From a phage: a DNA stretch of 64,000 nucleotides. Positions 3,406-59,487 of the stretch are shown one piece after another. Within the stretch, counting starts at the first letter, position 1, and each line of letters opens with the position of its first letter. The DNA lies in the sequence record PZ495249.1. One strand, written 5' to 3'. The position numbers and the translations under genes are program-made. The notes beneath the pieces were generated by a model that was given only the letters and a program-made list of their open reading frames with translations, did no database searches and was not told where the DNA came from.

Positions 3406-3552
3406 TTATTTCCCCCATCTGGTAAACCCCGCGCCCTGATTAGATTTTAACTCACGTTTCAAACGGGCGCAACGGCTCGCGATAGCGAAACGGGAGGGAG
3501 TTACAACGGTTGATCCGGTGTTGGTGTGGATTTTCATTACACGTTGTTTCAT
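3406..3552 (-). CDS. small basic protein (48 aa)
   Basis: hand-called ORF just downstream of promoter and leader hairpin; stop abuts start of next gene. Confidence 0.3.
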   Translation of the reverse strand: MKQRVMKIHTNTGSTVVTPSRFAIASRCARLKRELKSNQGAGFTRWGK

Positions 3553-3571
3553 AATCTTTCACCTTTGAGGA

Positions 3572-3593
3572 GGCGCGGGAACCATTCCCGCCC
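3572..3593 (-). promoter_or_regulatory. conserved leader stem-loop GGCGCGGGAACCATTCCCGCC
   Basis: between promoter 3603..3631 and ORF 3406..3552. Confidence 0.5.
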
Positions 3594-3937: not shown

Positions 3938-4471
3938 TTAGACGTTTTCAACAATACTTTTCAAGACGTCTACACCTTCCAGGAGATCACGCGCTGCACT
4001 GATCGCGGCTTCAATTGCATCCTCTTCGCCGCCGTGTTCTTTCCAGATCTCTTCTGCCGTGTCTAAGAGTGATCCTTCATCATCGTAGGAATAATCAAAA
4101 CCGCAACATACTACTTCACCGTCTAACAGGGTATGAGATCCGGCGGTAGCGTCAACCGTGAAATAGTAGTCATTGGCGGTAATGTCACGCGCTAATTGAC
4201 GCTGTAAACTTTCGTAAGCTTCACGGGACGGGTTAGCACGTCCTGCTTTCGCATAGTCTGCCGTGAGTTCTGCCAGCGTATACTGCTGAGGGATAGCATA
4301 TTTAAAGCTATTGCGATCTGCATCAGGGTTAGTAATAGTTACGCCGCCCTCGTGCGTGTCTGTCATTTTCCACTGATCCCCGAACTGGTCAAACGTGTAA
4401 GCACATACAACGTTAACAGTGAAATCAATGTTGTTACGGGAAAAGTTGAAAGTTTCAATGATATCAGACAT
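3938..4471 (-). CDS. hypothetical early protein (177 aa)
   Basis: track ORF; consensus promoter TTGACA-N16-TATAAT and leader hairpin upstream. Confidence 0.6.
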   Translation of the reverse strand: MSDIIETFNFSRNNIDFTVNVVCAYTFDQFGDQWKMTDTHEGGVTITNPDADRNSFKYAIPQQYTLAELTADYAKAGRANPSREAYESLQRQLARDITANDYYFTVDATAGSHTLLDGEVVCCGFDYSYDDEGSLLDTAEEIWKEHGGEEDAIEAAISAARDLLEGVDVLKSIVENV

Positions 4472-4491
4472 TTGGTTATCTCTCTTTAATT

Positions 4492-4512
4492 TGGCGCGGG
4501 AAACATTCCCGC
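4492..4512 (-). promoter_or_regulatory. conserved leader stem-loop GGCGCGGGAAACATTCCCGCC
   Basis: between consensus promoter and RBS of gene 3938..4471; no U-run, so not a terminator. Confidence 0.5.
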
Positions 4513-4525
4513 CGCCTATGAAGTG

Positions 4526-5276: not shown

Positions 5277-5494
5277 CACCACATACAGAAGAGGACACGC
5301 CACCCCACGGCGTAAAGGCGGGGCTAACATACCAGGGCGCTGGTTGCAAGGTGGATCGCCGGTAGCTCGCCTCAAAAAAGTTTTGTAAAGATTGAATAAA
5401 GTGCTTGCGTCCTGGGTTGGTTGTGTTATTATGTATACATGGACAGGGGAACGGGGCTGGCGAGACAATCACCGGAGCTGCCCGTCATTCTGGA

Positions 5495-5595
5495 AATGCG
5501 AATGAGTCTCTTTTCGGTTTGTAGATGAGAATGATTCTCATTCAACTTTATAAACGAGAATGATTATCACTTGCAAATGAGAATGCTTATCATAC
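5495..5595. repeat. four operator-like near-palindromes GAGAATG(A/C)TT(C/A)TCA
   Basis: four spaced copies of an imperfect inverted repeat in about 100 bp. Confidence 0.5.
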
Positions 5596-5613
5596 TCATC
5601 CGGCAAATTTTCG

Positions 5614-5820
5614 AGAATTTTAAATTTTGCTTTTGGAAAAATGCAGATCGAAAAGTTAAAAAACTTTTAATAATTGGGGAATTTTTTGAAAATTTTAAAT
5701 TTTGGTTTTGGATTTTTCTGTGGTAAGATGCAGAAAAGTTTTAAATAATTCAGGGAAATTTTAAATTTTGCTTTTCAATATTTATTGAGCAACCTGGAGA
5801 AAAGTTTTAAATAGTTTGAG
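5614..5820. repeat. three tandem AT-rich direct repeats of about 70 bp
   Basis: GARAATTTTAAATTTTGSTTTTGG plus CAGAAAAGTTTTAAATA recur three times in the same order. Confidence 0.55.
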
Positions 5821-6049
5821 AGTGATTTTCAAAGTTTGTTTCCATATTGTTCGGACTGAGATGGAAATAGATTATCAAGTTATTACAACAACTTACAAGA
5901 TTGCTTAGAGTTTGATTTAAATATGGTGTTAAGAAGTTCAAACTGTGTCTATGAATTTACTGGTATGTTGGAGGTGAGGCTCCGAAATATTGAACCCCAC
6001 ACCCCTTATTCTAAAAACGAAAATTTTTAAAATATCAGATAATATCAGG

Positions 6050-6667
6050 TTAGCCTAACATCGGCAAGAAAAGTCGGTCGCCACTTAGAATTAGTTCTCT
6101 TTGAATTAATCCATAGATGACAAACCCGTGACCACACTTCTTATCCTCAGCATGAATCACATCGTAATAATCCATACCTAACTCCTGGTAGTGATAACCG
6201 TCGAAGTCTAACAGTGCAATTTTCTCACCATCATTAACCCGTTTCCATAAGTCTTTGAATGTATCTGTTTGCACCACTGCACGGGCGTACATTGGGAAGT
6301 ACAGGTTTCGACGGGCAGTGATGTAATCCAGTTTCTTGCCATCCCAGACACTATACAGAGGCTTTCTGCCTTTACCCATAGGGTAGCGTTCTGCTCTCCA
6401 GTTAGCCCAACCTGCTCGCGCCCATGTGTAATACGCTTCGGTTGGATCACCGTTCTCATCTACGTGCTCTTCGTACACTTTACTAAATTGCCAGGCGTTC
6501 TCCATATTCTTGGCTACAATGCCACCATACATAGGTATATCGCGCAGGTAGAACGGGCTAAGCTGCTGTCCGTATCCTTCTTTATCACGGCTGGTAGTGT
6601 TGACCACCTTAAACCCTTCCGGTACTTTGTCCCGCATACCAACCACGATTAGATTATCAAACTTCAT
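6050..6667 (-). CDS. hypothetical protein (205 aa)
   Basis: track ORF 6050..6739 trimmed to internal Met with GGAG-N6-ATG. Confidence 0.6.
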   Translation of the reverse strand: MKFDNLIVVGMRDKVPEGFKVVNTTSRDKEGYGQQLSPFYLRDIPMYGGIVAKNMENAWQFSKVYEEHVDENGDPTEAYYTWARAGWANWRAERYPMGKGRKPLYSVWDGKKLDYITARRNLYFPMYARAVVQTDTFKDLWKRVNDGEKIALLDFDGYHYQELGMDYYDVIHAEDKKCGHGFVIYGLIQRELILSGDRLFLPMLG

Positions 6668-7139: not shown

Positions 7140-8264
7140 TCACATAATCAGTGACAGGTTTGCACTTCGCGTTGTGCTTGGTTCCAGTACCACACGGAAG
7201 CTGTCGCCTGGTTCATCGCTGTACACCACCAGTTTACCACCTGCAATCAGGTCTGTCTTCCACTTCGTGGCGTTCAGGTGAATGCGTGGATCACCTTCAT
7301 CATCAATGATGACTGCGGAACATTCTTCGAATGCTTCCTGATTGTCCTGCGTTGCCGGACGCAGATAAACATCGAGGGTTTTGATGCCACTCAGGAATGA
7401 CATTGGATTGAATCCATGCCAGTTGCTAACCCAGTTCACTTCTGCCAGTTTACCGTTCACGGTGATATTGCTGATATCCCACTTGGCTTCGCCGCCCAGG
7501 GAAATACCCATCATATCCAGACACGCTTTGAAGGTCATGTCTTTGTAGAAGTTAAGCTCTTCCACGATGCCTTGAATCACATCGAAGGAGAGTTCCAAAC
7601 TCACATCCCACAGACGCTGGAAGCTTGCCTGATGCTCTTTATCATCGAGATTCTTATCCAGATAATCGAGCATTGTCTCCAGGGAGATCTTATCATAGTT
7701 GAAGCTGTAGAAGATACGGCTCGGACGGTTGATAAAGAACTCGGAGATGAAGCCGCTATTCTTGGTCAGAATAAACAGCTTGTTACCACTGCCTGTACCA
7801 TCCAAAAGCGTTAACAGCGCTTCCTGATCCTGTTTCTTCTCGTACACTTTGTCAAACTCATCGAAGATGACAATTGCTTTCTCTGCAATCTTGCTCATCA
7901 GTTCAATGAAATTGGCATCGCTATACGCTTGCGTTACCATAATAACTGGTAAACCCTCTGCTGCCAGTTTACGGCTAATCACCTTAGCCAGCATGGTTTT
8001 ACCGCTACCCTTTGTGCCGGATAAGAGAACACCTGTGTTCTTGCCCTGCTCCGCACGACGCTTGTAGGTAGAGATGATGTGCGATGCACGTTTCTCTGTT
8101 TCACCATACAGGACGCTTGGTACTCCTGTCAAATCCCCACGACTAAGGAAGTAGTTACCCAGTGGATCACGGCTCACTGTCCAGAAACCAGCAGGGAGAG
8201 TTTCGCTCTTGACACCTGCCTCTTTGTCCACTACTGCGATATCACCATAAATTGTGTATGACAC
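7140..8264 (-). CDS. P-loop ATPase (AAA-like), paralog of 24796..25956
   Basis: Walker A GTKGSGKT and Walker B IVIFDEFD; long blocks conserved with the 24796 gene product. Confidence 0.75.
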   Translation of the reverse strand: MSYTIYGDIAVVDKEAGVKSETLPAGFWTVSRDPLGNYFLSRGDLTGVPSVLYGETEKRASHIISTYKRRAEQGKNTGVLLSGTKGSGKTMLAKVISRKLAAEGLPVIMVTQAYSDANFIELMSKIAEKAIVIFDEFDKVYEKKQDQEALLTLLDGTGSGNKLFILTKNSGFISEFFINRPSRIFYSFNYDKISLETMLDYLDKNLDDKEHQASFQRLWDVSLELSFDVIQGIVEELNFYKDMTFKACLDMMGISLGGEAKWDISNITVNGKLAEVNWVSNWHGFNPMSFLSGIKTLDVYLRPATQDNQEAFEECSAVIIDDEGDPRIHLNATKWKTDLIAGGKLVVYSDEPGDSFRVVLEPSTTRSANLSLIM

Positions 8265-15158: not shown

Positions 15159-15183
15159 AAGGGGCGTAAGCCCCTTATTTTAT
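15159..15183 (+). terminator. rho-independent terminator
   Basis: GGGGC-GTAA-GCCCC stem plus T-run. Confidence 0.55.
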
Positions 15184-25956: not shown

Positions 25957-25960
25957 TTGA

Positions 25961-25986
25961 AAGGGGCGAAAGCCCCTTTCTTGTTT
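25961..25986 (+). terminator. rho-independent terminator
   Basis: GGGGC-GAAA-GCCCC stem plus TTTCTTGTTT; after ATPase gene. Confidence 0.6.
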
Positions 25987-36482: not shown

Positions 36483-36488
36483 CATGAG

Positions 36489-36512
36489 AGGGGCGAAAGC
36501 CCCTTTCTCTTG
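36489..36512 (+). terminator. rho-independent terminator
   Basis: AGGGGC-GAAA-GCCCCT stem plus T-rich tail. Confidence 0.55.
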
Positions 36513-45368: not shown

Positions 45369-45390
45369 CAGGGGCGAAAGCCCCTTATTA
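45369..45390 (+). terminator. rho-independent terminator
   Basis: GGGGC-GAAA-GCCCC stem plus TTATTA; after DNA polymerase. Confidence 0.5.
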
Positions 45391-46977: not shown

Positions 46978-47886
46978 ATGCCAGTAATTAATTCCGAAAT
47001 CGACCGCAAGACTAAACAAGAAGCATTCTGGGCTGAGGGTATTGTAGAATACGTTAAGCTGGATAAGTTTGCAGAGATGAAAGTCTCTTACATTAAAGTC
47101 GCTGGTCAGCCGGATAAGAAAATTGAGTCCACTCACAAAGCTTCCATTCTTCTGAAAGAGAAAGGTGCTGGTAAGGATGATCCAGGTGTTTGGATCGGTC
47201 TGGGTGATGTTAAGCTGCATCCAGAGCATGAAAATCTGCAAGTCAAGAAAGACGACCAGTGGGTGACTATCGAACGTGGTGTTGAAATTACACTGGACGT
47301 TAAGCCTAATGAATGGCAGGGTAAAACTTATTACCAATCATCCAAAGGTAAGATCTTCGTTGTATCTACCGAAGGTGTTCAAGCTGCTGCTCCGAAAGCA
47401 GGAAAAGGTGGTGATAGCACTCCAGCTAAACAACCGTTCAAGAAACGCGATACCGTAGGTATTGAAACTGGTCACGCTGTTAACGGTGCTCTTGAGCTAA
47501 TCCGTGGTGGTGTGAAAGGTGATGCCTTTGAACTCGCAGGTGTAGTACAGTCTGCCACTGTAACGCTGAAAGCAGAAGTTGCTAAGGCTCGTGGTGTGGA
47601 TATCACTGATTACGATCTGGGTGCTTCTGTCGGTCATGCTATCCTGAATGCTTGCCGTGATCACTCTCGCGATGATGTGACCATTGACGAACTGATTGAA
47701 GCTGCTCGCGATGTGCTGGCGCTATCTGATAAGGTGGCTGCTGCAATCCGTGGTGATGCTCCTGTTGCTGAATCCAAACCAGCCGCAGAGAAGCCAAAGA
47801 CAACTCGTAAGCCAAAAGAGGCGGTAAAAGCTCCTGAGCCAGAGCCAGAACCTCCAATGGACTTCGACGACGATATTCCTTTCTAA
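46978..47886 (+). CDS. ssDNA-binding-protein-like replisome protein with E. coli SSB-type C-terminal tip
   Basis: C-terminus ...PEPEPEPPMDFDDDIPF identical to the E. coli SSB tail tip; adjacent to polymerase and primase-helicase. Confidence 0.65.
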   Translation: MPVINSEIDRKTKQEAFWAEGIVEYVKLDKFAEMKVSYIKVAGQPDKKIESTHKASILLKEKGAGKDDPGVWIGLGDVKLHPEHENLQVKKDDQWVTIERGVEITLDVKPNEWQGKTYYQSSKGKIFVVSTEGVQAAAPKAGKGGDSTPAKQPFKKRDTVGIETGHAVNGALELIRGGVKGDAFELAGVVQSATVTLKAEVAKARGVDITDYDLGASVGHAILNACRDHSRDDVTIDELIEAARDVLALSDKVAAAIRGDAPVAESKPAAEKPKTTRKPKEAVKAPEPEPEPPMDFDDDIPF

Positions 47887-47890
47887 GGAT

Positions 47891-47928
47891 AAAAATAAAG
47901 GGAGCCTCTTTCGAGGTTCCCTTTTTTA
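47891..47928. terminator. bidirectional terminator at convergence of middle and late blocks
   Basis: 9-bp stem flanked by A-run on one side and T6 on the other; between convergent genes ending at 47886 and 47929. Confidence 0.6.
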
Positions 47929-49080
47929 TTACACAGCATTTACGGATAAGTAGGAGCTATCAGAAGCAACCACCGTACCTTGATATGTGGCAGTACATCC
48001 TATCCTGCACCCGCCATCGCCTACTCCAGTAATAAGACCATTACTATCAACCGTAGCCACTGTAGGATCTGTTGTGGTATAAGTGATAACCATATCTGAT
48101 AACGACGCTGCACCATCTGGTGTTATCGTTGCCACAAGTTGTTGTGTAGTCCCTACACTCATTGCACTCAAGCTTTCAGTGTACACGCTTAATGTAGATG
48201 CATAGCCTCCAGAACTATCAGAGAGCGTTGTTCCAACATTGTTTTTAGCTGTTAAACTTGCATCGAAACCACCTTCACTAACAAACGACATTAGCCCATT
48301 AGTATCAATGGTCATAATAGAAGTATTACTTGAAGCATAAACTTTATCTGTTATTGGTGCTCCGGTTGGAGTAACAGAGTATGTTAATTGTTTCGTGCCT
48401 CCCACTATTGCAATACCGATGGAATCTGTGGTAATGCTTGTGGCTGTCGGTACTATACTGGTCATGATAGTTAGATCGTCTATTTTACCACGCAGCATTA
48501 GCGCGTTATCTGTAGTCCCAGCAATACAGAAGGGATTAGCAGTATTTCCCCCGAAACCCTTAGAAATAGTTAAAACAGATCCGAGAAAGACATTATCTTT
48601 CTTCACATACAAGCTACTCCCTGACTTCGTTATTGTCAGTCGAAACCAAGTATTAACTGGTAGTGCAGCAGTCCCAAAACGAAATCTTTGGACTTCCCCT
48701 GTCGTGCTGTAGCCATCTATACTAACGGATGCGAATACTTGATACGTATTGTTTAAGGTTATCCACCAACTACCAGAACCAGCATTGTTATTCAAGTTAC
48801 CGCATAGAATAGCTTGAGAGGTGTTATCTAAATATAACCATGTGTCTATAAGTAGGTCGGTAGTAGTCCCAACCACAAGACCAGTAGGTAGGCCACCAGA
48901 CGGGTTTGTAACGGTTATTTTACTATTAGATGTTCCACTAAATATGAGCGAACCTTTCCCTGATGCCGAATCTGTAGACTCGGCAACACCTGCACCCAAG
49001 GTAACTACACCGAATTCTTGCAAGCGTTTAACGATGTAGTTTACGTAAGGCTTTCCTCCGGCGAGTAACACTTCAAGCAT
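47929..49080 (-). CDS. tail fibre/adhesin-like protein with Ig-like (Big_2-type) C-terminal domain
   Basis: TTDPTVATVDSNGLITGVGDGG Ig-like motif; Thr/Ser/Gly-rich; first gene of late leftward block. Confidence 0.65.
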   Translation of the reverse strand: MLEVLLAGGKPYVNYIVKRLQEFGVVTLGAGVAESTDSASGKGSLIFSGTSNSKITVTNPSGGLPTGLVVGTTTDLLIDTWLYLDNTSQAILCGNLNNNAGSGSWWITLNNTYQVFASVSIDGYSTTGEVQRFRFGTAALPVNTWFRLTITKSGSSLYVKKDNVFLGSVLTISKGFGGNTANPFCIAGTTDNALMLRGKIDDLTIMTSIVPTATSITTDSIGIAIVGGTKQLTYSVTPTGAPITDKVYASSNTSIMTIDTNGLMSFVSEGGFDASLTAKNNVGTTLSDSSGGYASTLSVYTESLSAMSVGTTQQLVATITPDGAASLSDMVITYTTTDPTVATVDSNGLITGVGDGGCRIGCTATYQGTVVASDSSYLSVNAV

Positions 49081-49089
49081 AAGTTCACC

Positions 49090-49758
49090 TTAACTAATAA
49101 ATGTATTAGGTACAGCAGGTAGATTCTGCTTACTTGTCGCCTCGTATGTTGCTTTCAAGACAGTCAGATAATTTTGTACCACAACACCCCATTGCTTCAT
49201 AGCTTCATCAATTAGGCCAAGGGTATCTGTTTTATTTAGTGGATTTGACACACCTTCTTTCAGATTGATCAGATAAGTATCGGTGGCAGTTCCGCTGGTA
49301 GCAGACGTTTTGATAATATTTAATAGTGCCATACCATCTGCTGTCATTTGCAGGGTGTAATTTTGACCTGCGTATGTAACAGTGATACCTGTGAAACCAT
49401 CTTGAATAAAGATGTTATACAAGTTAGCTGCTTGACCTTGTTTTCTTTGTGCAAGATCTGCTGCGGCTTCTTGTTCATCAAAATCACGTACAACATAAGT
49501 ACGGTAGAATTTACCATCTGCCCCTTGCACTGGAGTGACTTCTGTAATAACATCACCATCAGGAATAGGTGAATCGAAAATCACAGCATAACCAAACTCT
49601 TCAAGAATGTAATCTCGGCAAGGGTATGGATAACTGATGTTAGTGTTAGAAGCACGAATAGCAGGGAAATAAATAGGCCAAGAAAGATCAGCCATATTAA
49701 TTAACGGGGTGTAATCATAAACCAAAGTAAAATCTTCGATTGAAGTAGTTTCTTCCAT
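49090..49758 (-). CDS. hypothetical structural-module protein (222 aa)
   Basis: track ORF; GGAGGA RBS; between two fibre genes. Confidence 0.55.
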   Translation of the reverse strand: MEETTSIEDFTLVYDYTPLINMADLSWPIYFPAIRASNTNISYPYPCRDYILEEFGYAVIFDSPIPDGDVITEVTPVQGADGKFYRTYVVRDFDEQEAAADLAQRKQGQAANLYNIFIQDGFTGITVTYAGQNYTLQMTADGMALLNIIKTSATSGTATDTYLINLKEGVSNPLNKTDTLGLIDEAMKQWGVVVQNYLTVLKATYEATSKQNLPAVPNTFIS

Positions 49759-49770
49759 CGTATTCCTCCG

Positions 49771-49799
49771 AATAAAAGAAGAGGGGATTTCTCCCCTCT
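49771..49799 (-). terminator. rho-independent terminator
   Basis: AGAGGGGA-TTTC-TCCCCTCT hairpin plus U-run on minus strand; after collagen-like fibre gene. Confidence 0.55.
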
Positions 49800-49803
49800 G
49801 TTA

Positions 49804-52296
49804 TTAAGCGTAACCACCTGGTTTGAAACCAAGTAGGCTCGTTCCGTCCCATAACAGACTAACTGTGCAACGTCCAGTGGTGTAGGTTGGAGCCGTTCCA
49901 TCTGTCCAGTTGATTGTGTTAGTCCATGACACTGAACCTGTATTACCAGTGAAGATAACAACAATGGTCATCGCTCTACCCGCTGGTAGGTTAGTAATCG
50001 TTAGGGTTTTGCTTGATGCCAGAGAGACAGTAAACACTTGTCCCTGACTTGCGTCAAGTGTAGCAGTTGCAGTAGATACAGCCAAATCGTAACGATTTAG
50101 ACGAGTCCACACACCACCGCTTTGCATGTAATATCCATCTGTGGTAGGGGCTTTCGCCAGTGTTTCTACCCAAGCTGTATCTTTACGTGCATAAACTTTC
50201 CCATCAGCAGGAGCATCTGAGATTCCTGGAGAAGGAATCGTAAACGCTGTCCAACCACCGTCTTTACGAGCGTACATAGAGCCATCGCTTGGTGCGTCAT
50301 AGACGTTACCACCACCCATGTAACCCATAGAAGCCCAGTTAAGGCTGCTGGTTTTCTGGAAGAACTGTAGTGTTAAGGAGTTTAGGAAGTAGTCGCCTAC
50401 ACGTCCGTCAGCAGGTCCAGGGTTACGCTGCAATACGATCCACAGTGTACCTTGATCACCCTTATCACCTTTCACACCCTGCGCACCTTGCGGTCCCGCT
50501 GGTCCCTGGATATTACCTGCGTTCTGGTATGATCCATTTCCTGAGCTATCTACGTTCCAAACCCAGAAGTTGCCATCAATCAGATAACCTTCACCGATGG
50601 TTCCAGTTGCAGGAAGATCTGCGGTTGAATCAAGTTCACCAAGGATCTTAACCCCTGGTCCCATAGGACCTGGAATACCCTGAATACCTTGTTCCCCTTG
50701 AATACCCTGCTCACCCTGGATACCTTGTGGACCGCTGTTCACGCCCATATCGATCCAAGCTGTACCGCTCCAGATGTATGAACGCTGGTGAATGTAGTAC
50801 ATGTCACCTTGAATGTTACCAGTGGTAGGTAGGTCTGAGGTGTTACTTAGTTCACCCTTCGCATGAATAGAATTACCAGTGGCTCCTGTTGCACCTTGTT
50901 CCCCTTGGATGCCACGAAGAACACCCATATCCACCCAACCTTCACTCTTGTCAAAGTTTAGCGTATAGATGTAAAGATTGCCAGTGTCTTCTAAGCTATA
51001 TGCGCTACCGTATGGAGGCTTAACTGGAAGATCGCTTGCAGATGGTACTTGACCTTTAGCGGTGATTGAGATACCTTGTAGAACACCAGCGTTGAGCCAT
51101 TCACCAGTTCCTGCAACAGGATCTATTGCTACCCAAATATAGATGTATTTATCAGGACCGACTAAGTAAGCTGTACCATAATTAACATCTTCCGGCGGAG
51201 GTAATTGACTTTCGTTATCTACTTCACCTACGATGTTAAGACCTGTACCAGGAACACCTTGGATACCAGGTACACCTTGCTCGCCTTGGATACCTTGTTC
51301 ACCTCTATCTCCTTTATCTCCCTTCAGAGATGCAAGGAAATCGGCTTCGGAACCAAAGTTACCAGCATTAATCCAGATTTGGTAAGCGGAGTCCCCGTCT
51401 TTACCATCTGCACCGTTTGTACCAGCATTACCTTTGTCTCCCTTATCCCCTTTGTCGCCTTTCGGACCGACAATAGCTCCCATGTCCACCCACGCAGTAC
51501 CGTTAGATACGTAGAGGTAGGTTCCATAGCTCCATGCCTGAGATACGTTAGCTGGAGATGGTAGTGGCAGTAGTCCAGGATCAGAGATAGCACCCTGATA
51601 ATCAAATCCGTTAGCGTTTACACCAGGATCACCTTTCTGTCCTTGTGGACTTGGATCACCTTTATCGCCCTTGATGGATTGAACGAAGTCAAGCTCTGTA
51701 CCTGTGTTACCAACGTCTAACCAACTTTGATACGCAGATTTACCTTCCGGTCCCACTTGACCAACAGGCGACCATTGGATACTATCCCATACCCACATTT
51801 GCTCTTGAACAATATATGCATCACCAGGAGAGTTTCCTGTCATAGGTAGGTCGGATACAGAATCAAAGCTTCCTTTGATTACAAGACCACTACCTGTATC
51901 TCCTTTCAGAGAATCAAGCCATTCTTGTTCAGTACCGACGAAGCCATTATCTACCGCAATATCATATGCAGATTTACCAGCTTCTGGAATTTGTGTAGCG
52001 AGGTCGTCGATCTCTTGTTGAATAGTTGTGAACTTGGCATTGATAATAGCAATATCGTCAGCTTTACCAACGTTAACCCAAGTGTTAACACCGATGCCAC
52101 CTGTAGAACCAGGGGTAGAGTTTGCTGGAACGACTTTCGGTAAAGCGCCCTTCCATTGATAGTAGTTACCGTCTGTATCGTACAGTAATACTTCTCTTGC
52201 ATTTGTTAATGTAAAGCCAGCTACAAAGCTTCTACGCTTTCTGTAGGTAGCTTCGACCATATCAGCAATAGCGCTATTAGGTCTTGTTAGAATCAT
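49804..52296 (-). CDS. tail fibre protein with collagen-like Gly-X-Y repeats
   Basis: several Gly-X-Y runs (e.g. GPQGIQGEQGIQGEQGIQGIPGPMGPG, GPKGDKGDKGDKGNAGTNGADGKDG); 830 aa; GAGGAG RBS. Confidence 0.8.
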   Translation of the reverse strand: MILTRPNSAIADMVEATYRKRRSFVAGFTLTNAREVLLYDTDGNYYQWKGALPKVVPANSTPGSTGGIGVNTWVNVGKADDIAIINAKFTTIQQEIDDLATQIPEAGKSAYDIAVDNGFVGTEQEWLDSLKGDTGSGLVIKGSFDSVSDLPMTGNSPGDAYIVQEQMWVWDSIQWSPVGQVGPEGKSAYQSWLDVGNTGTELDFVQSIKGDKGDPSPQGQKGDPGVNANGFDYQGAISDPGLLPLPSPANVSQAWSYGTYLYVSNGTAWVDMGAIVGPKGDKGDKGDKGNAGTNGADGKDGDSAYQIWINAGNFGSEADFLASLKGDKGDRGEQGIQGEQGVPGIQGVPGTGLNIVGEVDNESQLPPPEDVNYGTAYLVGPDKYIYIWVAIDPVAGTGEWLNAGVLQGISITAKGQVPSASDLPVKPPYGSAYSLEDTGNLYIYTLNFDKSEGWVDMGVLRGIQGEQGATGATGNSIHAKGELSNTSDLPTTGNIQGDMYYIHQRSYIWSGTAWIDMGVNSGPQGIQGEQGIQGEQGIQGIPGPMGPGVKILGELDSTADLPATGTIGEGYLIDGNFWVWNVDSSGNGSYQNAGNIQGPAGPQGAQGVKGDKGDQGTLWIVLQRNPGPADGRVGDYFLNSLTLQFFQKTSSLNWASMGYMGGGNVYDAPSDGSMYARKDGGWTAFTIPSPGISDAPADGKVYARKDTAWVETLAKAPTTDGYYMQSGGVWTRLNRYDLAVSTATATLDASQGQVFTVSLASSKTLTITNLPAGRAMTIVVIFTGNTGSVSWTNTINWTDGTAPTYTTGRCTVSLLWDGTSLLGFKPGGYA

Positions 52297-52329
52297 TTAT
52301 TACTCCTCGTTCGATTATTAAACGGTAGC

Positions 52330-52360
52330 ATAGAAATTAAAGAGGGGATTTCTCCCCTCT
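52330..52360 (-). terminator. rho-independent terminator (same hairpin as 49780..49799)
   Basis: identical AGAGGGGATTTCTCCCCTCT hairpin; after tailspike gene. Confidence 0.55.
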
Positions 52361-52362
52361 AT

Positions 52363-55300
52363 TTACGTCGTTGGTACATCGTTTGGAGTTGGACGAATTA
52401 CCGCAGTGTTACCCACTGAAACATTACTTGCGTCGTTAGGAACAGTTTTAATTCTAATTCCAGCCGCAGTAGCTGTTTGAATAGGATCGGCAATATCAAT
52501 CTTGACAGGGTTTGTCCACAGGTCATTATCTTGATATGGTGCGCGGGTAATTACAGTATCGAGATCTGCACCACCTGCACCTGCCCCAGGAATACGGATA
52601 CGTGTTCCGGCTGATAATGGGTAATGGTATAACCAAGAAGCGTTTGTCGCCGTTCCATTTGGTACTAAGTTCTGAGCCAGTGATTTATCGCCAACAGTTG
52701 TTGCACGAATTCCGAATGCTGCAATATCTGGGATATATGCACCACTTGTCGTAACAAGGAAGAACGTGTTATCTGCTTTAACGATCATGTCACCTTTATC
52801 AAACTCTTTCCCAGTTGGGAAGTGCAGACCATCAATGTTTCTGCTTGGGTTAGCTTCCAGGTAATAAACCTTTCCGGTAGAACCAAGAAGAGCACCAATT
52901 CCGCCAGCGATGTTGGTATACATGTTGGCTTCAACGTTACAGTTGACACGGTGAATGTCAGAGTAACGGCAACGGCTCCATGCTGGACGACCACTAACCA
53001 TTGTGTTACCATTTGGGTAGCAGTTTACGTTAACCATTTCAAGAACAGATTTCTCGCGACGGAAGAATCCATCGTAGAATGTACCTGGTCCTGACTCTGG
53101 TTGACCAACACACTCGAAGCTGTTACAAGTGATGTTTGACATTGACAGCCAAGAAGCAATACCGAATAGCTGTAGTGCAGCACAACGGATGTTCTCGAAG
53201 CTCACACGGTTTTCAAATCCTGGTCCTGCTGAAACACCTGCGAACACACGCCCTGTGCGGGTATGAACGTTCTTAACAGAGTAGTTGAAGCAAGGGTTTG
53301 AAGGTCTACCTTGTGGTGGCTGAACTGGTTGTCCATCCGGTCCCAATACTGGGTTAGTACCCCACTCCAAGTAAATCAGACGGATATTACTTGCTGGAGT
53401 GTTAGCATCAGTTTTAGGTTCACCGTAAACACCGTCAATCGTGAAGTCTTTGCTTCCGTACATTACCACTGCACCTGTTGCTAAACCAGTACCTGTCGAA
53501 ACAGTCTGATCAGGATCACCGTGGATGTTCTCAATAGTAATGTTACGTCCAACTTCTACGTGAACAATTTGACGACAACGTTTTGCAAACACGTTGCGGA
53601 TTGTGATATTCTTACAGTATTGACTGTCTGGGATATCGTAACCATATGGTCCCTGTCCTGCCACACCGATACCGATACCCCAGTTGGAGTTAGCGATAGG
53701 AGCGTTTGTACCGTCAATGTTAGACAGATAGATGTTCTCGATCACACAACCATCATCATAGTGTTTACTGATAACGTTAAGTTCGATAGCATCACCTTGC
53801 ATATCCATGAAGGTAAGGTTGCGGAATACACCACGAGTTACAGGCTCACCAGTACCTTGTTGAAGAATACCGTATAAACCGTTTTTGAAGGTACAGTTGT
53901 CAATCTCGAATGTACCCGTGATTGGGTTGCCCTGGAATACCAGGCTACCAACTTGTCCTGCGCGTGGCGCACCGTCCCACAGGCAGTCGTAGATACGAAC
54001 TGCACCACCCCAATACATAACGCGAGCGTTACGGAAGGTTACACCTTCTAAGGTAGCATTTTGTAAACGATAGTCACGTTGACCACGGAATACACCACCT
54101 TTCAGCGTGATACCAGTGATATCAAAGCTGCTTGTAGTGAAAGTCATGTCACACCCGTAGGCGTTCAACACTTTCCCTTTGCTGTTAGCAGTTGCTGTCA
54201 GAGCCGCCTGGAAAGCTGCTTCTGGTGTGGTGTATTTTGAATTGTTCGCAAACTCAGACAAGTAAACAACGTCGAACAGATCGTTGAATACACCACCGTG
54301 TGGTGTTAGAAGCGCTTCTGTGTTCGTCAGAACCCAAGTGGTAGGGCTAACCCCTCCGCTGCTTTCTAAAGTGTCTGTAGCTGAAATTGTCTTAGGTAGA
54401 GTACCAGCCCAACGATAACGACCTGAACCCATACCGATAGTTTGGTTCTTGATAGTTAAAGTAGCTGCGTTACCGAAGCTCGTTGGCAGGTGAACAAATT
54501 GTCCACGTTCAACAGCCAGTGCAGCAAGGTCAACTGTACCACCTGAGTAAGTTAACACACCTGTTGCAGAAAGGCTACCGAAGTTACCGCTAATACCTAC
54601 TGGTAGAGTGTACGCTGCTTGGGTTGTAGGATCGTAAAGAGCCTTAATCCCTGTTAGAGACTGCCCTGTTTGTGCTAAACCAACTTCTGCATCTTTCAGA
54701 CCGAACTTACGTGCCACAATCTGTGTTGGAACTTTACTCATCTGAGTCGTCAGATCAGAAGTAGTAGTTTCCAGTGCAGTAACACGGTTTGCCAGGTTAG
54801 GATCGTTATCTGCGGCAGCTACAATTTTACCAATGTACGCAAACAGTTTGTTAGGTAGTCCAGTAGCAGGATCTAAACCAAGAGGTTCAGAAAGAATGAT
54901 CTTGCTGTCCTGAATAGTATACGCATCACCAACAATCTGCACAACCCCGTTGATAGTTACGATAGCACTATCAAACACGTATGGAGGGCTGATAACTTTC
55001 TCATAACCTGTTGCGCCAGTGTACAACCAAGGGTATACTTCGTTAGCAAGCTGTTCAGTTTTCATAGCCCAGAGAACCCAGTTATTATCTCCTACTGGAG
55101 TCCCTTGCATAGGGATTGGGTTAGCGGTTGTCGCTGTTGGAGCGTAGTAATACCCACTCAGAATCCCATTCTGGAAGAAACGGAGTTGGTTAAATACTGT
55201 TTCATTAGTACCTGCCGCCCAAGCGACAGGGCTTTTGAAATAGAAGTTATCAAGCAACGCTTTACGCAGCGTAGGAATTAAACCTGTTTCAGTTTCAACC

Positions 55301-55407
55301 GTAGCTGTCGCAGCACCGTTAATAACATCGTGCAACTGGTTAGAAGAGAAAATAACCAGGTCAACACCCTGATCGAGTGTTGTAGCAGGATATGTTGGAA
55401 ATGCCAT
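52363..55407 (-). CDS. tailspike / receptor-binding protein with parallel beta-helix-like repeats (candidate depolymerase)
   Basis: 1014 aa; repeated N.T..N pattern (NCTFKNG, NITIRNV, NITIENI) typical of pectate-lyase-like beta-helices. Confidence 0.7.
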   Translation of the reverse strand: MAFPTYPATTLDQGVDLVIFSSNQLHDVINGAATATVETETGLIPTLRKALLDNFYFKSPVAWAAGTNETVFNQLRFFQNGILSGYYYAPTATTANPIPMQGTPVGDNNWVLWAMKTEQLANEVYPWLYTGATGYEKVISPPYVFDSAIVTINGVVQIVGDAYTIQDSKIILSEPLGLDPATGLPNKLFAYIGKIVAAADNDPNLANRVTALETTTSDLTTQMSKVPTQIVARKFGLKDAEVGLAQTGQSLTGIKALYDPTTQAAYTLPVGISGNFGSLSATGVLTYSGGTVDLAALAVERGQFVHLPTSFGNAATLTIKNQTIGMGSGRYRWAGTLPKTISATDTLESSGGVSPTTWVLTNTEALLTPHGGVFNDLFDVVYLSEFANNSKYTTPEAAFQAALTATANSKGKVLNAYGCDMTFTTSSFDITGITLKGGVFRGQRDYRLQNATLEGVTFRNARVMYWGGAVRIYDCLWDGAPRAGQVGSLVFQGNPITGTFEIDNCTFKNGLYGILQQGTGEPVTRGVFRNLTFMDMQGDAIELNVISKHYDDGCVIENIYLSNIDGTNAPIANSNWGIGIGVAGQGPYGYDIPDSQYCKNITIRNVFAKRCRQIVHVEVGRNITIENIHGDPDQTVSTGTGLATGAVVMYGSKDFTIDGVYGEPKTDANTPASNIRLIYLEWGTNPVLGPDGQPVQPPQGRPSNPCFNYSVKNVHTRTGRVFAGVSAGPGFENRVSFENIRCAALQLFGIASWLSMSNITCNSFECVGQPESGPGTFYDGFFRREKSVLEMVNVNCYPNGNTMVSGRPAWSRCRYSDIHRVNCNVEANMYTNIAGGIGALLGSTGKVYYLEANPSRNIDGLHFPTGKEFDKGDMIVKADNTFFLVTTSGAYIPDIAAFGIRATTVGDKSLAQNLVPNGTATNASWLYHYPLSAGTRIRIPGAGAGGADLDTVITRAPYQDNDLWTNPVKIDIADPIQTATAAGIRIKTVPNDASNVSVGNTAVIRPTPNDVPTT

Positions 55408-55748
55408 TAATTTTTGTCCTTACTTTGTGTGCGTTTAGTTATTTCCTCTAACATCATCTGGATAGTCGCATTCTTGAGATCCATAATCTTTTCGATTTTC
55501 TGTTCAAGAGCGGTATTGTTTGCCATCAGAGTAGAGTTTATCTGGTTCAGCATCTGAGCAAGTTCGGCTTTCGTTGCGTAAGTTGATTCGACAAAGACGA
55601 GTTTCTTTTCTAATTCTCGATACTTGTCTTCAACTTCTTCTAAATCCGATGACATGTCATCAACTTTCTGTTTGAAGAAGAACCAGATAACACCAATTAA
55701 AGGGAGTATCGTTTCCTTTGCGATATCCCATAGTTCGGTAATTTGCAT
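55407..55748 (-). CDS. hypothetical protein with N-terminal hydrophobic helix (113 aa)
   Basis: track ORF; AAGGAG RBS; ATGA-type overlap with tailspike start. Confidence 0.5.
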   Translation of the reverse strand: MQITELWDIAKETILPLIGVIWFFFKQKVDDMSSDLEEVEDKYRELEKKLVFVESTYATKAELAQMLNQINSTLMANNTALEQKIEKIMDLKNATIQMMLEEITKRTQSKDKN

Positions 55749-55757
55749 GTGATCTCC

Positions 55758-56303
55758 TTATTTGGTTGGCAGGATAGGCCATTCAATATTAGTTGGATAG
55801 CCCTCTTGCGAAGTCACACGGCTTAGATATACCAAGTAACGTTGCAATTCTTTTAAGTAGGCAGCTTCTTCGTCAGTCATCATATCCAACTCTTTAGCCG
55901 CCTGTAACGGAGCCATAAGTTGAGAGACTTCGTTTTGTAATGTATCTGCTTTACTTTTTGCATTTGCAATCAGTTCTTCACGAGTTGGTATACGATCTTT
56001 TATTTTCCCTGTTCGAAGATCAAACACCTTGTTTTTGAAATCATCAATGACACCATCTAAATCAATATCGGCAATGCAAGCATTGATAGGCCACAAGCCA
56101 GATACATCCTTGGAGACGGATGTAATTACCCCAGACTGTTTATCGAAAACAATTTTCAGCTTATCATTATCAAACAAACGCTGGCATTCGTACCAATCTA
56201 CACCTTCTTGACTTTTCAGAAAAATGACGTTTAAAGTTTTCTGTAACTCCAGCTTGTCTTTATCTTCTGGGTTGTAAATTTTAAAATTTGTTAAAATAGT
56301 CAT
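55758..56303 (-). CDS. tail fibre assembly chaperone-like protein
   Basis: track ORF 55758..56327 trimmed to Met overlapping fibre stop (TAATG); Tfa-like C-terminus; sits immediately downstream of a fibre gene. Confidence 0.6.
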   Translation of the reverse strand: MTILTNFKIYNPEDKDKLELQKTLNVIFLKSQEGVDWYECQRLFDNDKLKIVFDKQSGVITSVSKDVSGLWPINACIADIDLDGVIDDFKNKVFDLRTGKIKDRIPTREELIANAKSKADTLQNEVSQLMAPLQAAKELDMMTDEEAAYLKELQRYLVYLSRVTSQEGYPTNIEWPILPTK

Positions 56304-57358
56304 TATAATTGTCCCACCGTGTACCAATTTCCGTTAACATTCTTCTGGACAGGTTTGAAATATAATGTATCCCCGCCAGGGTTTTCACCCTCGAAGTAAT
56401 AACCCATTACAAAACCGCCACCATCTGCTAAGACAGCCTGATTGTGTTTAATAATCTTCGTGTACGTCGCGCCTAAGCGGATATCTATAACACAGTTAGC
56501 AAGAGTCCAGTTCCAGTTGTTAGAGATCTGCCCTTGCAGGTAGTCCTGTACGTTAGTAATACGGTTGTTAACTGCACCAATCTGAGAGTTGATGTAGTTA
56601 GTTAGGTTGGTATTAACGTTGTTGATGTTGTTTTGCAACGTCGTCTGTAACGTGTTTAAACGTGAGTTTAAATAGTCTAAACGAACAAGCGCATTCTGGT
56701 TCACTGTATCCTGTGCATCGTTTGTACGAGGACTTGTCAGGGTAACATAACCACCATCCCACATAGTAACAACAGCAGTTTGAGCACCGTTTGCAGGGTT
56801 AATACGTGCCATTGATAAATAACCACCACCCGCATAAGTGGATGAGAAGTTACCATTAGTCTGACCAGCGAAATTCTGAAAGAAGATCGTTGCAGCATCT
56901 GTTGTGCTTGTACCACAGACATAAATATCACCGCCCCAAATACCACCATTACCATCTCGCTTAACTAATACGTTAGGAGTGACAACATTACTTGTAGCAT
57001 CTGAGATATTCGCTGATAAGTGGTTGTGACTGTTATCTACCACCTGAATTGAAAGAGTAACCTCTTTGTTACCATTCCAAGTTACAGAACCCGTGGCATC
57101 ACCAGCCATTGTAATCTTAGTACCAACAAGCGGAAGATAGGTGTTTGGTAACGTTGGCATGAAGTCATCTACGATGTAGTGAATCCATAATCCAAGGTTA
57201 TTCAGCAGCCAGTTTAATTCTTCGCAAGTCATAATTTGACCGAAGTCCATACCCACTGTGCGGATAGTTTCTTTCGGTCTAATCTTGTTTGTGTTCCCTG
57301 TCCCTGGAAGCGTTACTGTTTGTGTCGCCCAATCAGGGTAGTATGTTGGCTTAGCCAT
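56303..57358 (-). CDS. tail fibre protein (351 aa)
   Basis: Asn-rich coiled segment NNINNVNTNLTNYINSQIGAVNNRITNVQ; AAGGAG RBS; followed by chaperone gene. Confidence 0.6.
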   Translation of the reverse strand: MAKPTYYPDWATQTVTLPGTGNTNKIRPKETIRTVGMDFGQIMTCEELNWLLNNLGLWIHYIVDDFMPTLPNTYLPLVGTKITMAGDATGSVTWNGNKEVTLSIQVVDNSHNHLSANISDATSNVVTPNVLVKRDGNGGIWGGDIYVCGTSTTDAATIFFQNFAGQTNGNFSSTYAGGGYLSMARINPANGAQTAVVTMWDGGYVTLTSPRTNDAQDTVNQNALVRLDYLNSRLNTLQTTLQNNINNVNTNLTNYINSQIGAVNNRITNVQDYLQGQISNNWNWTLANCVIDIRLGATYTKIIKHNQAVLADGGGFVMGYYFEGENPGGDTLYFKPVQKNVNGNWYTVGQL

Positions 57359-57367
57359 TTAAACTCC

Positions 57368-57997
57368 TTACTCTATTTGCGCTATTAGCATACACATGCG
57401 TCCAGTTTCTTCTCCGGTAGATTCCATGTATAGGGAACCCAGGCCACCAATCCCATGAGGGGGCTTAGTCGCGTAATAGGAAGTGAAACCGAAAGCCGAT
57501 CCAGACTTCGCTCCTAAACGGTAGCTACTTAAAATTGGGAAAACGTTAAGCAGTTGCGCAATAGCCTGATCAGATTGCAGACACAAGTTATAAAAGAATA
57601 CGTCGAAGGTTTTGTTTAACCCAACGTATGTGTTAATCGTAGATCTATCTGTACCTGTGAAACGAGCGAAAATATCAATAATGTCGCCTCGTGTACCAGA
57701 GGATGCAACACGATATGCCCTGATTTTTAAAATCGTTCTATACTCTTCATCGTCAGAACCATTTCGTTCGATCCCCATTTCTTCACCGATGATATCGAGA
57801 TATTCACCTGTAGCAGTGGAGATCAAACGGTGTTTAGCAAGATAGATCATTGCCTGATCTATCTTTTGCTTTTCACTTGAAATGACGTAAAGGAGCTTGA
57901 CAATGTTTTCAGAAGATTTAAAATCTTCAATCAGGAGGTTTTTAACATCTTCATTGATATTATCCCAAGTCGTTACATGGTCAACACTCACTGCCAT
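57368..57997 (-). CDS. baseplate protein (P2 gpI-like position)
   Basis: track ORF; called from position next to the gpJ-like gene, in P2-like J-I-H-G order. Confidence 0.5.
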   Translation of the reverse strand: MAVSVDHVTTWDNINEDVKNLLIEDFKSSENIVKLLYVISSEKQKIDQAMIYLAKHRLISTATGEYLDIIGEEMGIERNGSDDEEYRTILKIRAYRVASSGTRGDIIDIFARFTGTDRSTINTYVGLNKTFDVFFYNLCLQSDQAIAQLLNVFPILSSYRLGAKSGSAFGFTSYYATKPPHGIGGLGSLYMESTGEETGRMCMLIAQIE

Positions 57998-57999
57998 TT

Positions 58000-59487
58000 T
58001 TAGACTCCGTATTCGTATGAAATGTTTTCAAGGTCGAATGATGGTACAACGTTGTACGCAGGAACGATATCGCTCTCAGTGTATTTACTGTCATCCTCAG
58101 TATTAAGTTTAACATAAACACGCAGAGAAGTCAAGCGTCCAAACGCCAGAGCGGAATAAATTACCCCTTTAATCTGGTCGTTAGTAACAGTTGAACCTAA
58201 TTCGAAGTAAGCTTGCAGGTCAGAGAGAGCCTTGACAATGTTTTCTCTTTCTGTCGTACTTAGAGTAGAACCGTTAGCACTCTGATAAACCAGTTTCAGA
58301 GAGTAAACTTGGCTATCACCTGGAGAGAAACGAATAATCTCTTGACCACCGTCTTCCGTTGTGATAGTAATAGCTGTAGTCCCATAAGTCAGGGTGTTGA
58401 TTGGCTTAGTGTCATAAATAACTTTAGCCACTTCCTCAGCGTTACCACCGAATACGATAGTTTGGAAAGTAAAGGCTGGTGCATATGTCTGATCGTGCAG
58501 TGTCGGGTTATCATAAATCTTAACCTTAGTTACACCGTCAGTTAACAGCAGAGCTTTGACAATCGCAGCACGAGTAGCAGCATTTGCTTCATCAAGGTTG
58601 TCATTGAAACGTGAACGGAATTCCGCATCGGTTTCAACATCACGACCTGGGGAGAATGCATAGAAGTTACCAGTGTCTAAGTAACCCGCAAATGTTGAAG
58701 AGATACCAGTGATACTCTCCACGCCAACAGGGTTATATCCAGCCTCTGCACCAACGACAGGAATTTCACTCCACTTAATTCCGATAGGAATGGAAGCGTA
58801 GAATTTCATTGGAGTAACAAGCCCAACGGGATTAACGTTATCTGAGGTATTAAAACCTACGTATACGTTGCTTGAATCGTTCCATACAAGGTTTCTATCC
58901 GTGATAGATACGTTTGCCTTAATGAAATTCATTAAGTCTGTAATGAACGTTGTAGAGTTCGGATTTAGCGTTTTACTGTTCAGACCACCATCACTTGCGT
59001 TCTGCATGTAGAATGTAATAGCGTTTACACCAGATCCTGTTGCGTTAGCCTTGGAAATAGTGTATGCTCCAATCTTAGCATTAAGCATGGTAGGAGTGCT
59101 GACGTAATATGTCAAGTCGTTATCTGCATTGAAATAGGTTTCTGTGCCTAATTCATAAGTCCAAGCAGCTTTGTTGTTTGTCTTAACGTAAGCATAACCA
59201 CTACCAGCAGATGCACCTTGGCGGTAGAAACCACGTTTAGAGAAAATCTCGTCGAGGTAAATACCTTCTGCGCCATCTAAGGTTTGCGTGTTATAGACAC
59301 CCTGCATACCTTCCCACAATGTGTAGTCGGTGTATGCAACAATGCGGAACAACTGCCCGAAAACCGTATCTTCGGAAGTTGCAGTGTCTGCCCCGAAAGT
59401 GTTTTTCAGGGAAGTCATGTAGTTATTCAGAATGTCATCGAATGTCGGGATTACAAATCCCGCATCTGTTAGGCCATAATCTGCCAT
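58000..59487 (-). CDS. baseplate wedge protein (gpJ-like)
   Basis: 495 aa; AAGGAGGA RBS; position between spike/wedge genes and fibre genes. Confidence 0.55.
   Translation of the reverse strand: MADYGLTDAGFVIPTFDDILNNYMTSLKNTFGADTATSEDTVFGQLFRIVAYTDYTLWEGMQGVYNTQTLDGAEGIYLDEIFSKRGFYRQGASAGSGYAYVKTNNKAAWTYELGTETYFNADNDLTYYVSTPTMLNAKIGAYTISKANATGSGVNAITFYMQNASDGGLNSKTLNPNSTTFITDLMNFIKANVSITDRNLVWNDSSNVYVGFNTSDNVNPVGLVTPMKFYASIPIGIKWSEIPVVGAEAGYNPVGVESITGISSTFAGYLDTGNFYAFSPGRDVETDAEFRSRFNDNLDEANAATRAAIVKALLLTDGVTKVKIYDNPTLHDQTYAPAFTFQTIVFGGNAEEVAKVIYDTKPINTLTYGTTAITITTEDGGQEIIRFSPGDSQVYSLKLVYQSANGSTLSTTERENIVKALSDLQAYFELGSTVTNDQIKGVIYSALAFGRLTSLRVYVKLNTEDDSKYTESDIVPAYNVVPSFDLENISYEYGV

Follow-up and report, generated by a model that had tools for sequence, protein, structure and literature searches.

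We analysed a stretch of 64,000 nucleotides (nt) from a phage (sequence record PZ495249.1; hereafter the window), in which two identical 20-nt hairpins, at 52341..52360 (hairpin 1) and 49780..49799 (hairpin 2), lie on either side of the gene for an 830-amino-acid (aa) collagen-like tail fibre. It was found that these hairpins are very probably Rho-independent terminator-type stem-loops, which follow the tailspike and fibre genes on the late transcript of this phAPEC8-like phage, and are not the boundaries of an exchange module. The terminator role is drawn from the anatomy of the hairpins, their conserved position in related phages, and the covariation of their stems. A preliminary description of this DNA had reported the two copies around the fibre gene and had proposed that each terminates the gene ending there. 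Both copies were recovered exactly, gene calls and domain content confirmed that they bracket the fibre gene, and the three lines of evidence agree with the predicted termination role. Its further proposal, that the identical flanks could serve as homology arms when the fibre is swapped, was not supported by comparison with relatives: alignments cross the hairpins, the mosaic junctions lie elsewhere, and the flanking hairpins differ from each other outside the window's own clade.

Anatomy and positional conservation of the hairpins

The 20-mer AGAGGGGATTTCTCCCCTCT has two exact plus-strand copies in the whole window, against a chance expectation of 0.01 matches on average in shuffled sequence, and a single extra match (36487-36506) was found when up to three mismatches were allowed. 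The exact repeat extends to 21 nt (49779-49799 and 52340-52360), with divergent sequence directly beyond it on both sides. Every gene in the hairpin region lies on the minus strand, and the minus-strand RNA of both copies reads AGAGGGGA-GAAA-TCCCCTCT, an 8-bp stem with five G-C pairs that carries a GAAA tetraloop of the GNRA type. When folded in context, the two hairpins had energies of -14.5 and -16.8 kcal/mol (z-scores of -3.3 and -3.1). Hairpin 1 stands 2 nt past the tailspike stop codon and is followed by the 3' tail UUAAUUUCU (52332-52340; U at 6 of 9 positions), and hairpin 2, with the same stem-loop, stands 4 nt past the fibre stop codon and is followed by UCUUUUAUU (49771-49779; U at 7 of 9 positions). 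Both U-rich tails pass a terminator consensus scan, and both tracts are interrupted, which suggests partial termination efficiency. A scan for promoter-like sites recorded no minus-strand sigma70-like promoter at or beside either hairpin, and an Rfam scan of 47000-58000 returned no family match at E <= 1. The only other strong hairpin inside the minus-strand tail operon is the one at its end. Hairpins 1 and 2 have all the testable features of intrinsic terminators, and transcript ends are predicted at both sites from the sequence.

The locus was compared with approximately 30 related phage loci. The tail region of the window has approximately 75-77% DNA identity to Phapecoctavirus and other Stephanstirmvirinae phages (phAPEC8, Schickermooser), and all relatives closer than these were metagenome assemblies. 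The closest of them, L146, has approximately 90% DNA identity to the window, followed by L171, L167, and L169 at approximately 81-86%. These four and the window comprise a clade of five genomes with 10-19% DNA difference, whose tailspike has 1014 or 1015 aa and whose fibre has 829 or 830 aa. The more distant loci compared included L125, L127, L128, L173, L123, and others.

Wherever the flanks of a relative were readable, the tailspike gene and the fibre gene were each followed by a stable hairpin (-9.7 to -20.9 kcal/mol). Escherichia phage vB_EcoM_Schickermooser has terminators predicted by ARNOLD annotated at the same three sites, namely downstream of the tailspike and fibre genes and at the end of the operon. 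The sole exception to the post-tailspike hairpin was L127, in which the tailspike body is missing. It was noted that in this locus (7287-8001) the tailspike is cut to a 232-aa N-terminal adaptor carrying PF26208 only, and that the fibre gene comes next with no hairpin between the two.

The hairpin sequences vary widely between lineages, and their pairing is retained. Among 11 distinct orthologous post-fibre hairpins, in an alignment assembled from the extracted hairpins, all pair cells were standard (77/77), every pair showed double changes (7/7), and the covariation score was reached by none of the shuffles (0/500). Compensatory pair changes separate hairpin 2 from its orthologues in L125 (AGGGGGAGAAAUCCCCCU), L173 (AAAGGGGAGAAAUCCCCUUU), and L127, and those relative to L173 and L125 fit vertical descent. 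Within the five-genome clade there were no stem changes at all, with flanks that are 66-78% identical; the 100-nt bin at hairpin 2 has 66-68% identity between the window and L167, L169, and L171. The stems of the operon-end terminator were equally invariant in a wider set of relatives, with loops of GAAA, GCAA, or GUGA, all of the GNRA type, and stem conservation is thus a general property of terminators in this group and not special to the pair. A special sequence constraint on hairpins 1 and 2 was rejected on this basis. More generally, the terminator stems of the group are better conserved than the adjoining coding DNA.

The stems of hairpins 1 and 2 are invariant in sequence, beyond their pairing, at both sites in the five genomes despite the diverged flanks, and this would also be expected of a sequence-specific regulatory site, where one phage or host RNA-binding factor (an antiterminator, an RNase, or a translational regulator) co-ordinates tailspike and fibre expression. 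We consider such a site extremely unlikely, because the third terminator is equally invariant with a different sequence and the outgroups have unrelated stem sequences at the same positions. Neither an Rfam match nor a candidate binding protein was identified for it.

The terminator reading has consequences for the gene that follows hairpin 2, which encodes a 222-aa protein. Its ATG lies 21 nt past the hairpin, the interval holds only a ribosome-binding site (RBS; GGAGG), and there is no sigma70-like promoter nearby, so the gene would be expressed by read-through. Read-through past hairpin 2, together with the interrupted U-tracts, points to the hairpins as partial terminators or attenuators. 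Along with the bidirectional terminator at 47897..47924, which ends both the minus-strand tail operon and the plus-strand genes that converge on it, hairpins 1 and 2 would split the distal tail-fibre operon into three separately ended units. They would end part of late transcription and shield or stabilise mRNA 3' ends, and the output would be graded, with tailspike and fibre mRNA exceeding the mRNA of the downstream accessory genes.

Several points weigh against this reading. The U-tracts are imperfect, and the hairpins could be mainly mRNA-stability or processing structures. An internal promoter may drive the 222-aa gene. Finally, neighbouring terminators that match exactly at 20 of 20 positions, in this clade only, are more than structure alone accounts for, and conversion or convergence may be involved.

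Mosaic junctions and the exchanged unit

If they acted as homology arms, the 20-21-nt repeats would make the intervening fibre gene a cassette open to exchange, insertion, or excision. They form an exact, direct pair around a receptor-binding gene, and the poly-G/poly-C stem-loops of promoter-early stem-loop (PeSL) cassettes mediate such shuffling in T4-type phages (PMC2839356). We nevertheless judged this role to be very unlikely for hairpins 1 and 2, since both are crossed by alignments and no junction was found at hairpin 2. Alignments with Phapecoctavirus-type loci run from approximately 55900 over hairpin 1 and stop within the fibre gene, at 51893 (L123) or 51293 (L001), and the alignment with L125 runs from 50818 over hairpin 2 to 49482, within the 222-aa gene. 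Identity within the clade is 0.94-1.00 on either side of hairpin 1. In L171, identity falls from approximately 0.94 to approximately 0.7 near 50100, about 100 codons ahead of the fibre stop, and the low identity persists across hairpin 2 and throughout the 222-aa gene. Both the L167 and the L171 alignment break at 49090, where the 222-aa gene meets the adjoining Big_2 gene and there is no hairpin. Overall, the junctions were placed near 50100 and at approximately 51300-51900, both inside the fibre gene, and at 49080-49090. It was also noted that the start of the Big_2 gene (49080-49090) is an exact junction in several relatives.

One mosaic junction does lie close to a hairpin, approximately 15-25 nt 3' of hairpin 1, and could be taken in favour of homology arms. 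It was encountered in comparison with the L125/L128/L173 group, which has another type of tailspike C-terminus and hairpin 1 and becomes similar to the window again at the fibre leader (52317-52327). The junction is of the ordinary kind at a gene end, and no other lies near a hairpin. Other features of the locus also argue against homology arms: the leader and N-terminal part of the fibre agree with the backbone lineage (L128 type), and none of the approximately 30 relatives lacks the fibre or carries another gene between the hairpins. The repeats have no attached promoter and number only two copies, and repeats within the same genome would favour deletion over exchange. Across the relatives compared, the hairpins thus appeared essentially as ordinary terminators with no association with module boundaries.

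The pairing of fibre types with downstream genes defines what is exchanged. Where the fibre has the C-terminal type of the window, a homologue of the 222-aa protein is encoded next in 11 of 11 loci, including that of Cronobacter phage PBES 02 (Vequintavirinae). Short fibres (653-681 aa), which had a PF26209 C-terminus when checked, are directly followed by a longer tail protein in 11 of 11 loci (approximately 580-940 aa where complete), with one locus ending too early to confirm the tail-protein match. This tail protein belongs to a family that shares an immunoglobulin-like (Ig-like) segment with the 383-aa Big_2 protein of the window. In all 22 loci examined (22/22), the type of fibre C-terminus and the gene downstream of it vary together, which places hairpin 2 inside the exchanged unit, and the co-inheritance of fibre tip, hairpin 2, and 222-aa gene in every locus with the window's fibre type further opposes the homology-arm role. 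Judging from these alignments, the exchanged unit is the fibre C-terminus together with hairpin 2 and the 222-aa gene, and it starts inside the fibre gene.

It was noted that the 222-aa gene diverges jointly with the last 100 or so fibre residues (49804-50100). By analogy, the 222-aa protein is a candidate fibre tip partner or chaperone. A receptor-binding gene in a phage can be flanked by identical hairpins that are not recombination arms, a point of little import beyond annotation. For host-range engineering in this Stephanstirmvirinae-like group, the segment to swap would be the fibre C-terminus with its 222-aa partner and not the segment from hairpin to hairpin.

Origin of the shared hairpin sequence

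The identity of the two hairpins was examined within and outside the clade. Hairpins 1 and 2 are the same 20-mer in the window, L146, and L169; they differ solely in the loop of hairpin 2 (GUAA) in L167, and solely in the loop of hairpin 1 (GAGA) in L171, so that the loops stay of the GNRA type throughout the clade. Outside the clade, the two fibre-flanking hairpins are unlike each other in every relative examined. The identity of hairpins 1 and 2 is a clade-specific historical feature. Hairpin 2 would have descended vertically from the outgroup post-fibre hairpin of this fibre type, GGGGA-GAAA-TCCCC, and hairpin 1 resembles the AGAGGGGG...CCCCCTCT hairpin found after the Phapecoctavirus-type tailspike. 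The two would have become identical once, through either short-patch conversion or convergence towards a design that is very common, with 20 informative nt being too few to choose between these routes. Purifying selection, as on the third terminator, would have maintained the identity since then. Ongoing concerted evolution of the two copies was disfavoured by the within-genome loop differences in L167 and L171.

A related explanation is that the identity is the footprint of ectopic conversion or recombination with no present function. The lineage would have acquired the tailspike C-terminal module of Phapecoctavirus type, and at that point hairpin 2 would have either replaced the sequence of hairpin 1 or recombined with it. 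The chimeric make-up of hairpin 1 would fit such an event: its outer stem (AGAG...CTCT) is that found after Phapecoctavirus tailspikes (AGAGGGGGAUUCCCCCUCU), and its core and loop (GGGGA-GAAA-UCCCC) are those of the hairpin seen after the fibre gene in the outgroups L125 and L173. Hairpin 1 and the C-terminal end of the tailspike also derive from a different lineage than the adjoining fibre leader. This account is possible, though on balance we think it unlikely, given the few informative positions, a common design that makes convergence plausible, and the loop differences of L167 and L171, which speak against continuing homogenisation. It is also conceivable, if improbable, that generic G-run/GNRA terminator hairpins are portable microhomologies, at which gene-plus-terminator cassettes are joined by illegitimate or short-patch recombination, and that the chimeric hairpin 1 is a scar of the arrival of the tailspike catalytic module.

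The hairpin sequence itself is widespread. The exact 20-mer AGAGGGGATTTCTCCCCTCT was found in at least 120 IMG/VR contigs, and none of the matches listed was window-like past the hairpin and its immediate A/T-rich flanks. It was also found in 45 phylogenetically scattered bacterial genomes (596 Gb; approximately one expected by chance). This recurrence in unrelated viral contigs and scattered bacteria marks the hairpin as a generic design. Within the window, the sequence AGGGGCGAAAGCCCCT has three exact copies at unrelated sites. By a hand estimate, there are approximately 18 hairpin loci with perfect stems, among them one pair and one triple of identical sequence, which gives 4 identical pairs of 153, and approximately 0.4 adjacent identical pairs would be expected under random placement by the same rough estimate, so the adjacency by itself is not significant.

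Additional repeats were noted in the window. A terminator family of the form AGGGGC-GNRA-GCCCCT occurs at 25959-25980, 36489-36504, and 45370-45385 (also at 15159 and 42413), with three exact 16-mer copies. The window terminator at 25960-25979 has the same 20-mer as the hairpin ahead of the fibre in L129, a Justusliebigvirus-like locus, and the two sites are not homologous. A family of 41-nt repeats at 2294-2334, 3552-3592, and 4473-4513 combines the GC hairpin GGCGCGGGAAnCATTCCCGCC with a conserved purine-rich/RBS stretch. On the minus strand, a small early open reading frame (ORF) apparently follows directly after each of these repeats, the clearest being that with its ATG at 4471, and the family is more like a PeSL cassette in look than hairpins 1 and 2 are. 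Three tandem AT-rich repeats of approximately 66-75 nt (AAATTTTAAATTTTGSTTTTGG...AAAAGTTTTAAATAATT) were also recorded at 5615-5816, in a gap of approximately 570 nt (about 5480-6050) without a long ORF; these may represent clustered promoters or a region resembling an origin.

The tail operon and comparison with known systems

In transcription order on the minus strand, the operon carries genes for a 351-aa fibre (56303-57358), a Caudo_TAP chaperone (55758-56327), a 113-aa 'lipoprotein'-family protein (55407-55748), and the 1014-aa tailspike (52363..55407). The tailspike is colanic-acid-degradation/WcaM-like with an internal Tail_spike_N domain, and it has approximately 76% nt identity to the Phapecoctavirus 'colanic acid-degrading protein'. 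It was noted that identity between the window and L146 is only 0.57-0.75 over 55897-56490, from the C-terminal part of the 351-aa fibre into the Caudo_TAP chaperone. The sharpest recent exchange between these two genomes lies here, in what is the most recently swapped receptor-binding module of the lineage, and its borders are without a hairpin.

After the tailspike comes the conserved fibre 5' leader TACCGTTTAATAATCGAACGAGGAGTAATAA (52297..52327, minus strand), which is common to the L125/L128/L149/L173 group. Its motif TACCGTYTAAT was not enriched in the window as a repeated late promoter would be (2 matches compared to 1.9 expected). The 830-aa fibre (49804..52296, minus strand) contains Tail_spike_N, collagen repeats, and a Fibritin_C-like stretch. 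In PHROG matches, residues 1-475 correspond to the phAPEC8 fibre type (phrog_15437) and residues 407-825, approximately, to another family (phrog_3904), and a look-up of the exact fibre protein returned no record. The 222-aa protein (49090..49758, minus strand) belongs to phrog_4998, with no function assigned and no Pfam domain. Its AlphaFold2 (AF2) model has a predicted local distance difference test (pLDDT) score of 74.7, with the first 60 N-terminal residues poorly predicted, and a Foldseek comparison of the model with the PDB gave no match at E <= 0.001. No relatives of this gene were found in the IMG/VR search, and those compared here were drawn from the protein database and contig look-ups. 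The last gene encodes the 383-aa Big_2/lectin-like tail protein (47929..49080, minus strand), whose C-terminal 170 aa match the middle of a protein of approximately 890 aa in relatives. It was noted that the length of the Big_2 protein is variable, at 186, 383, or 494 aa in close relatives and approximately 890 aa in Phapecoctavirus.

Hairpins 1 and 2 were compared with three known systems. Like the ARNOLD terminators of Schickermooser, which represent intrinsic terminators with GNRA/UUCG tetraloops, the terminators here have a G/C-rich stem of 7-9 bp, a tetraloop, and a U-rich tail, are co-oriented with the gene, and lie 2-4 nt past the stop codon at the same three positions. Unlike in Schickermooser and the other relatives outside the clade, where the first two hairpins differ, these two sites share one 20-mer in this clade. 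The U-tracts here are also interrupted and the downstream gene relies on read-through, in contrast to the Schickermooser terminators, and the window's hairpins are probably attenuators.

PeSL cassettes of T4-type phages comprise a strong sigma70-type early promoter and a poly-G/poly-C stem-loop (PMC2839356, Arbiol et al. 2010; PMC4122927, Comeau et al. 2014). Approximately 50 are found per genome, clustered in hyperplastic early regions of small non-essential genes and at indel junctions between close relatives, and mini-circles are also described (PMC2839356; PMC4122927). The hairpins of the window are similar to PeSLs as repeated intergenic terminating stem-loops with poly-G/poly-C stems, and PeSLs flank plastic genes and mediate modular shuffling. 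However, hairpins 1 and 2 have no attached promoter, and they comprise two exact copies and one relative with 3 mismatches in 64 kb, with the exact copies located in the late tail-fibre operon. The mosaic junctions also lie away from them, save the one 3' of hairpin 1. Membership of hairpins 1 and 2 among the PeSLs was rejected on these three tested features, namely the promoter, the copy number and setting, and the coincidence with junctions.

Cassettes of a fibre tip and a downstream accessory or chaperone gene are known as gp37-gp38 in T4, S-U in Mu, and H-G in P2. The locus described here differs from them in two respects: a terminator-type hairpin stands between the fibre and the partner gene, and the partner is a 222-aa protein without a Pfam or PDB fold match, whose putative chaperone role is assigned by analogy. 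The overall arrangement is nonetheless alike, in that the fibre C-terminus and the next gene are swapped jointly, with the junction placed after a conserved N-terminal attachment region.

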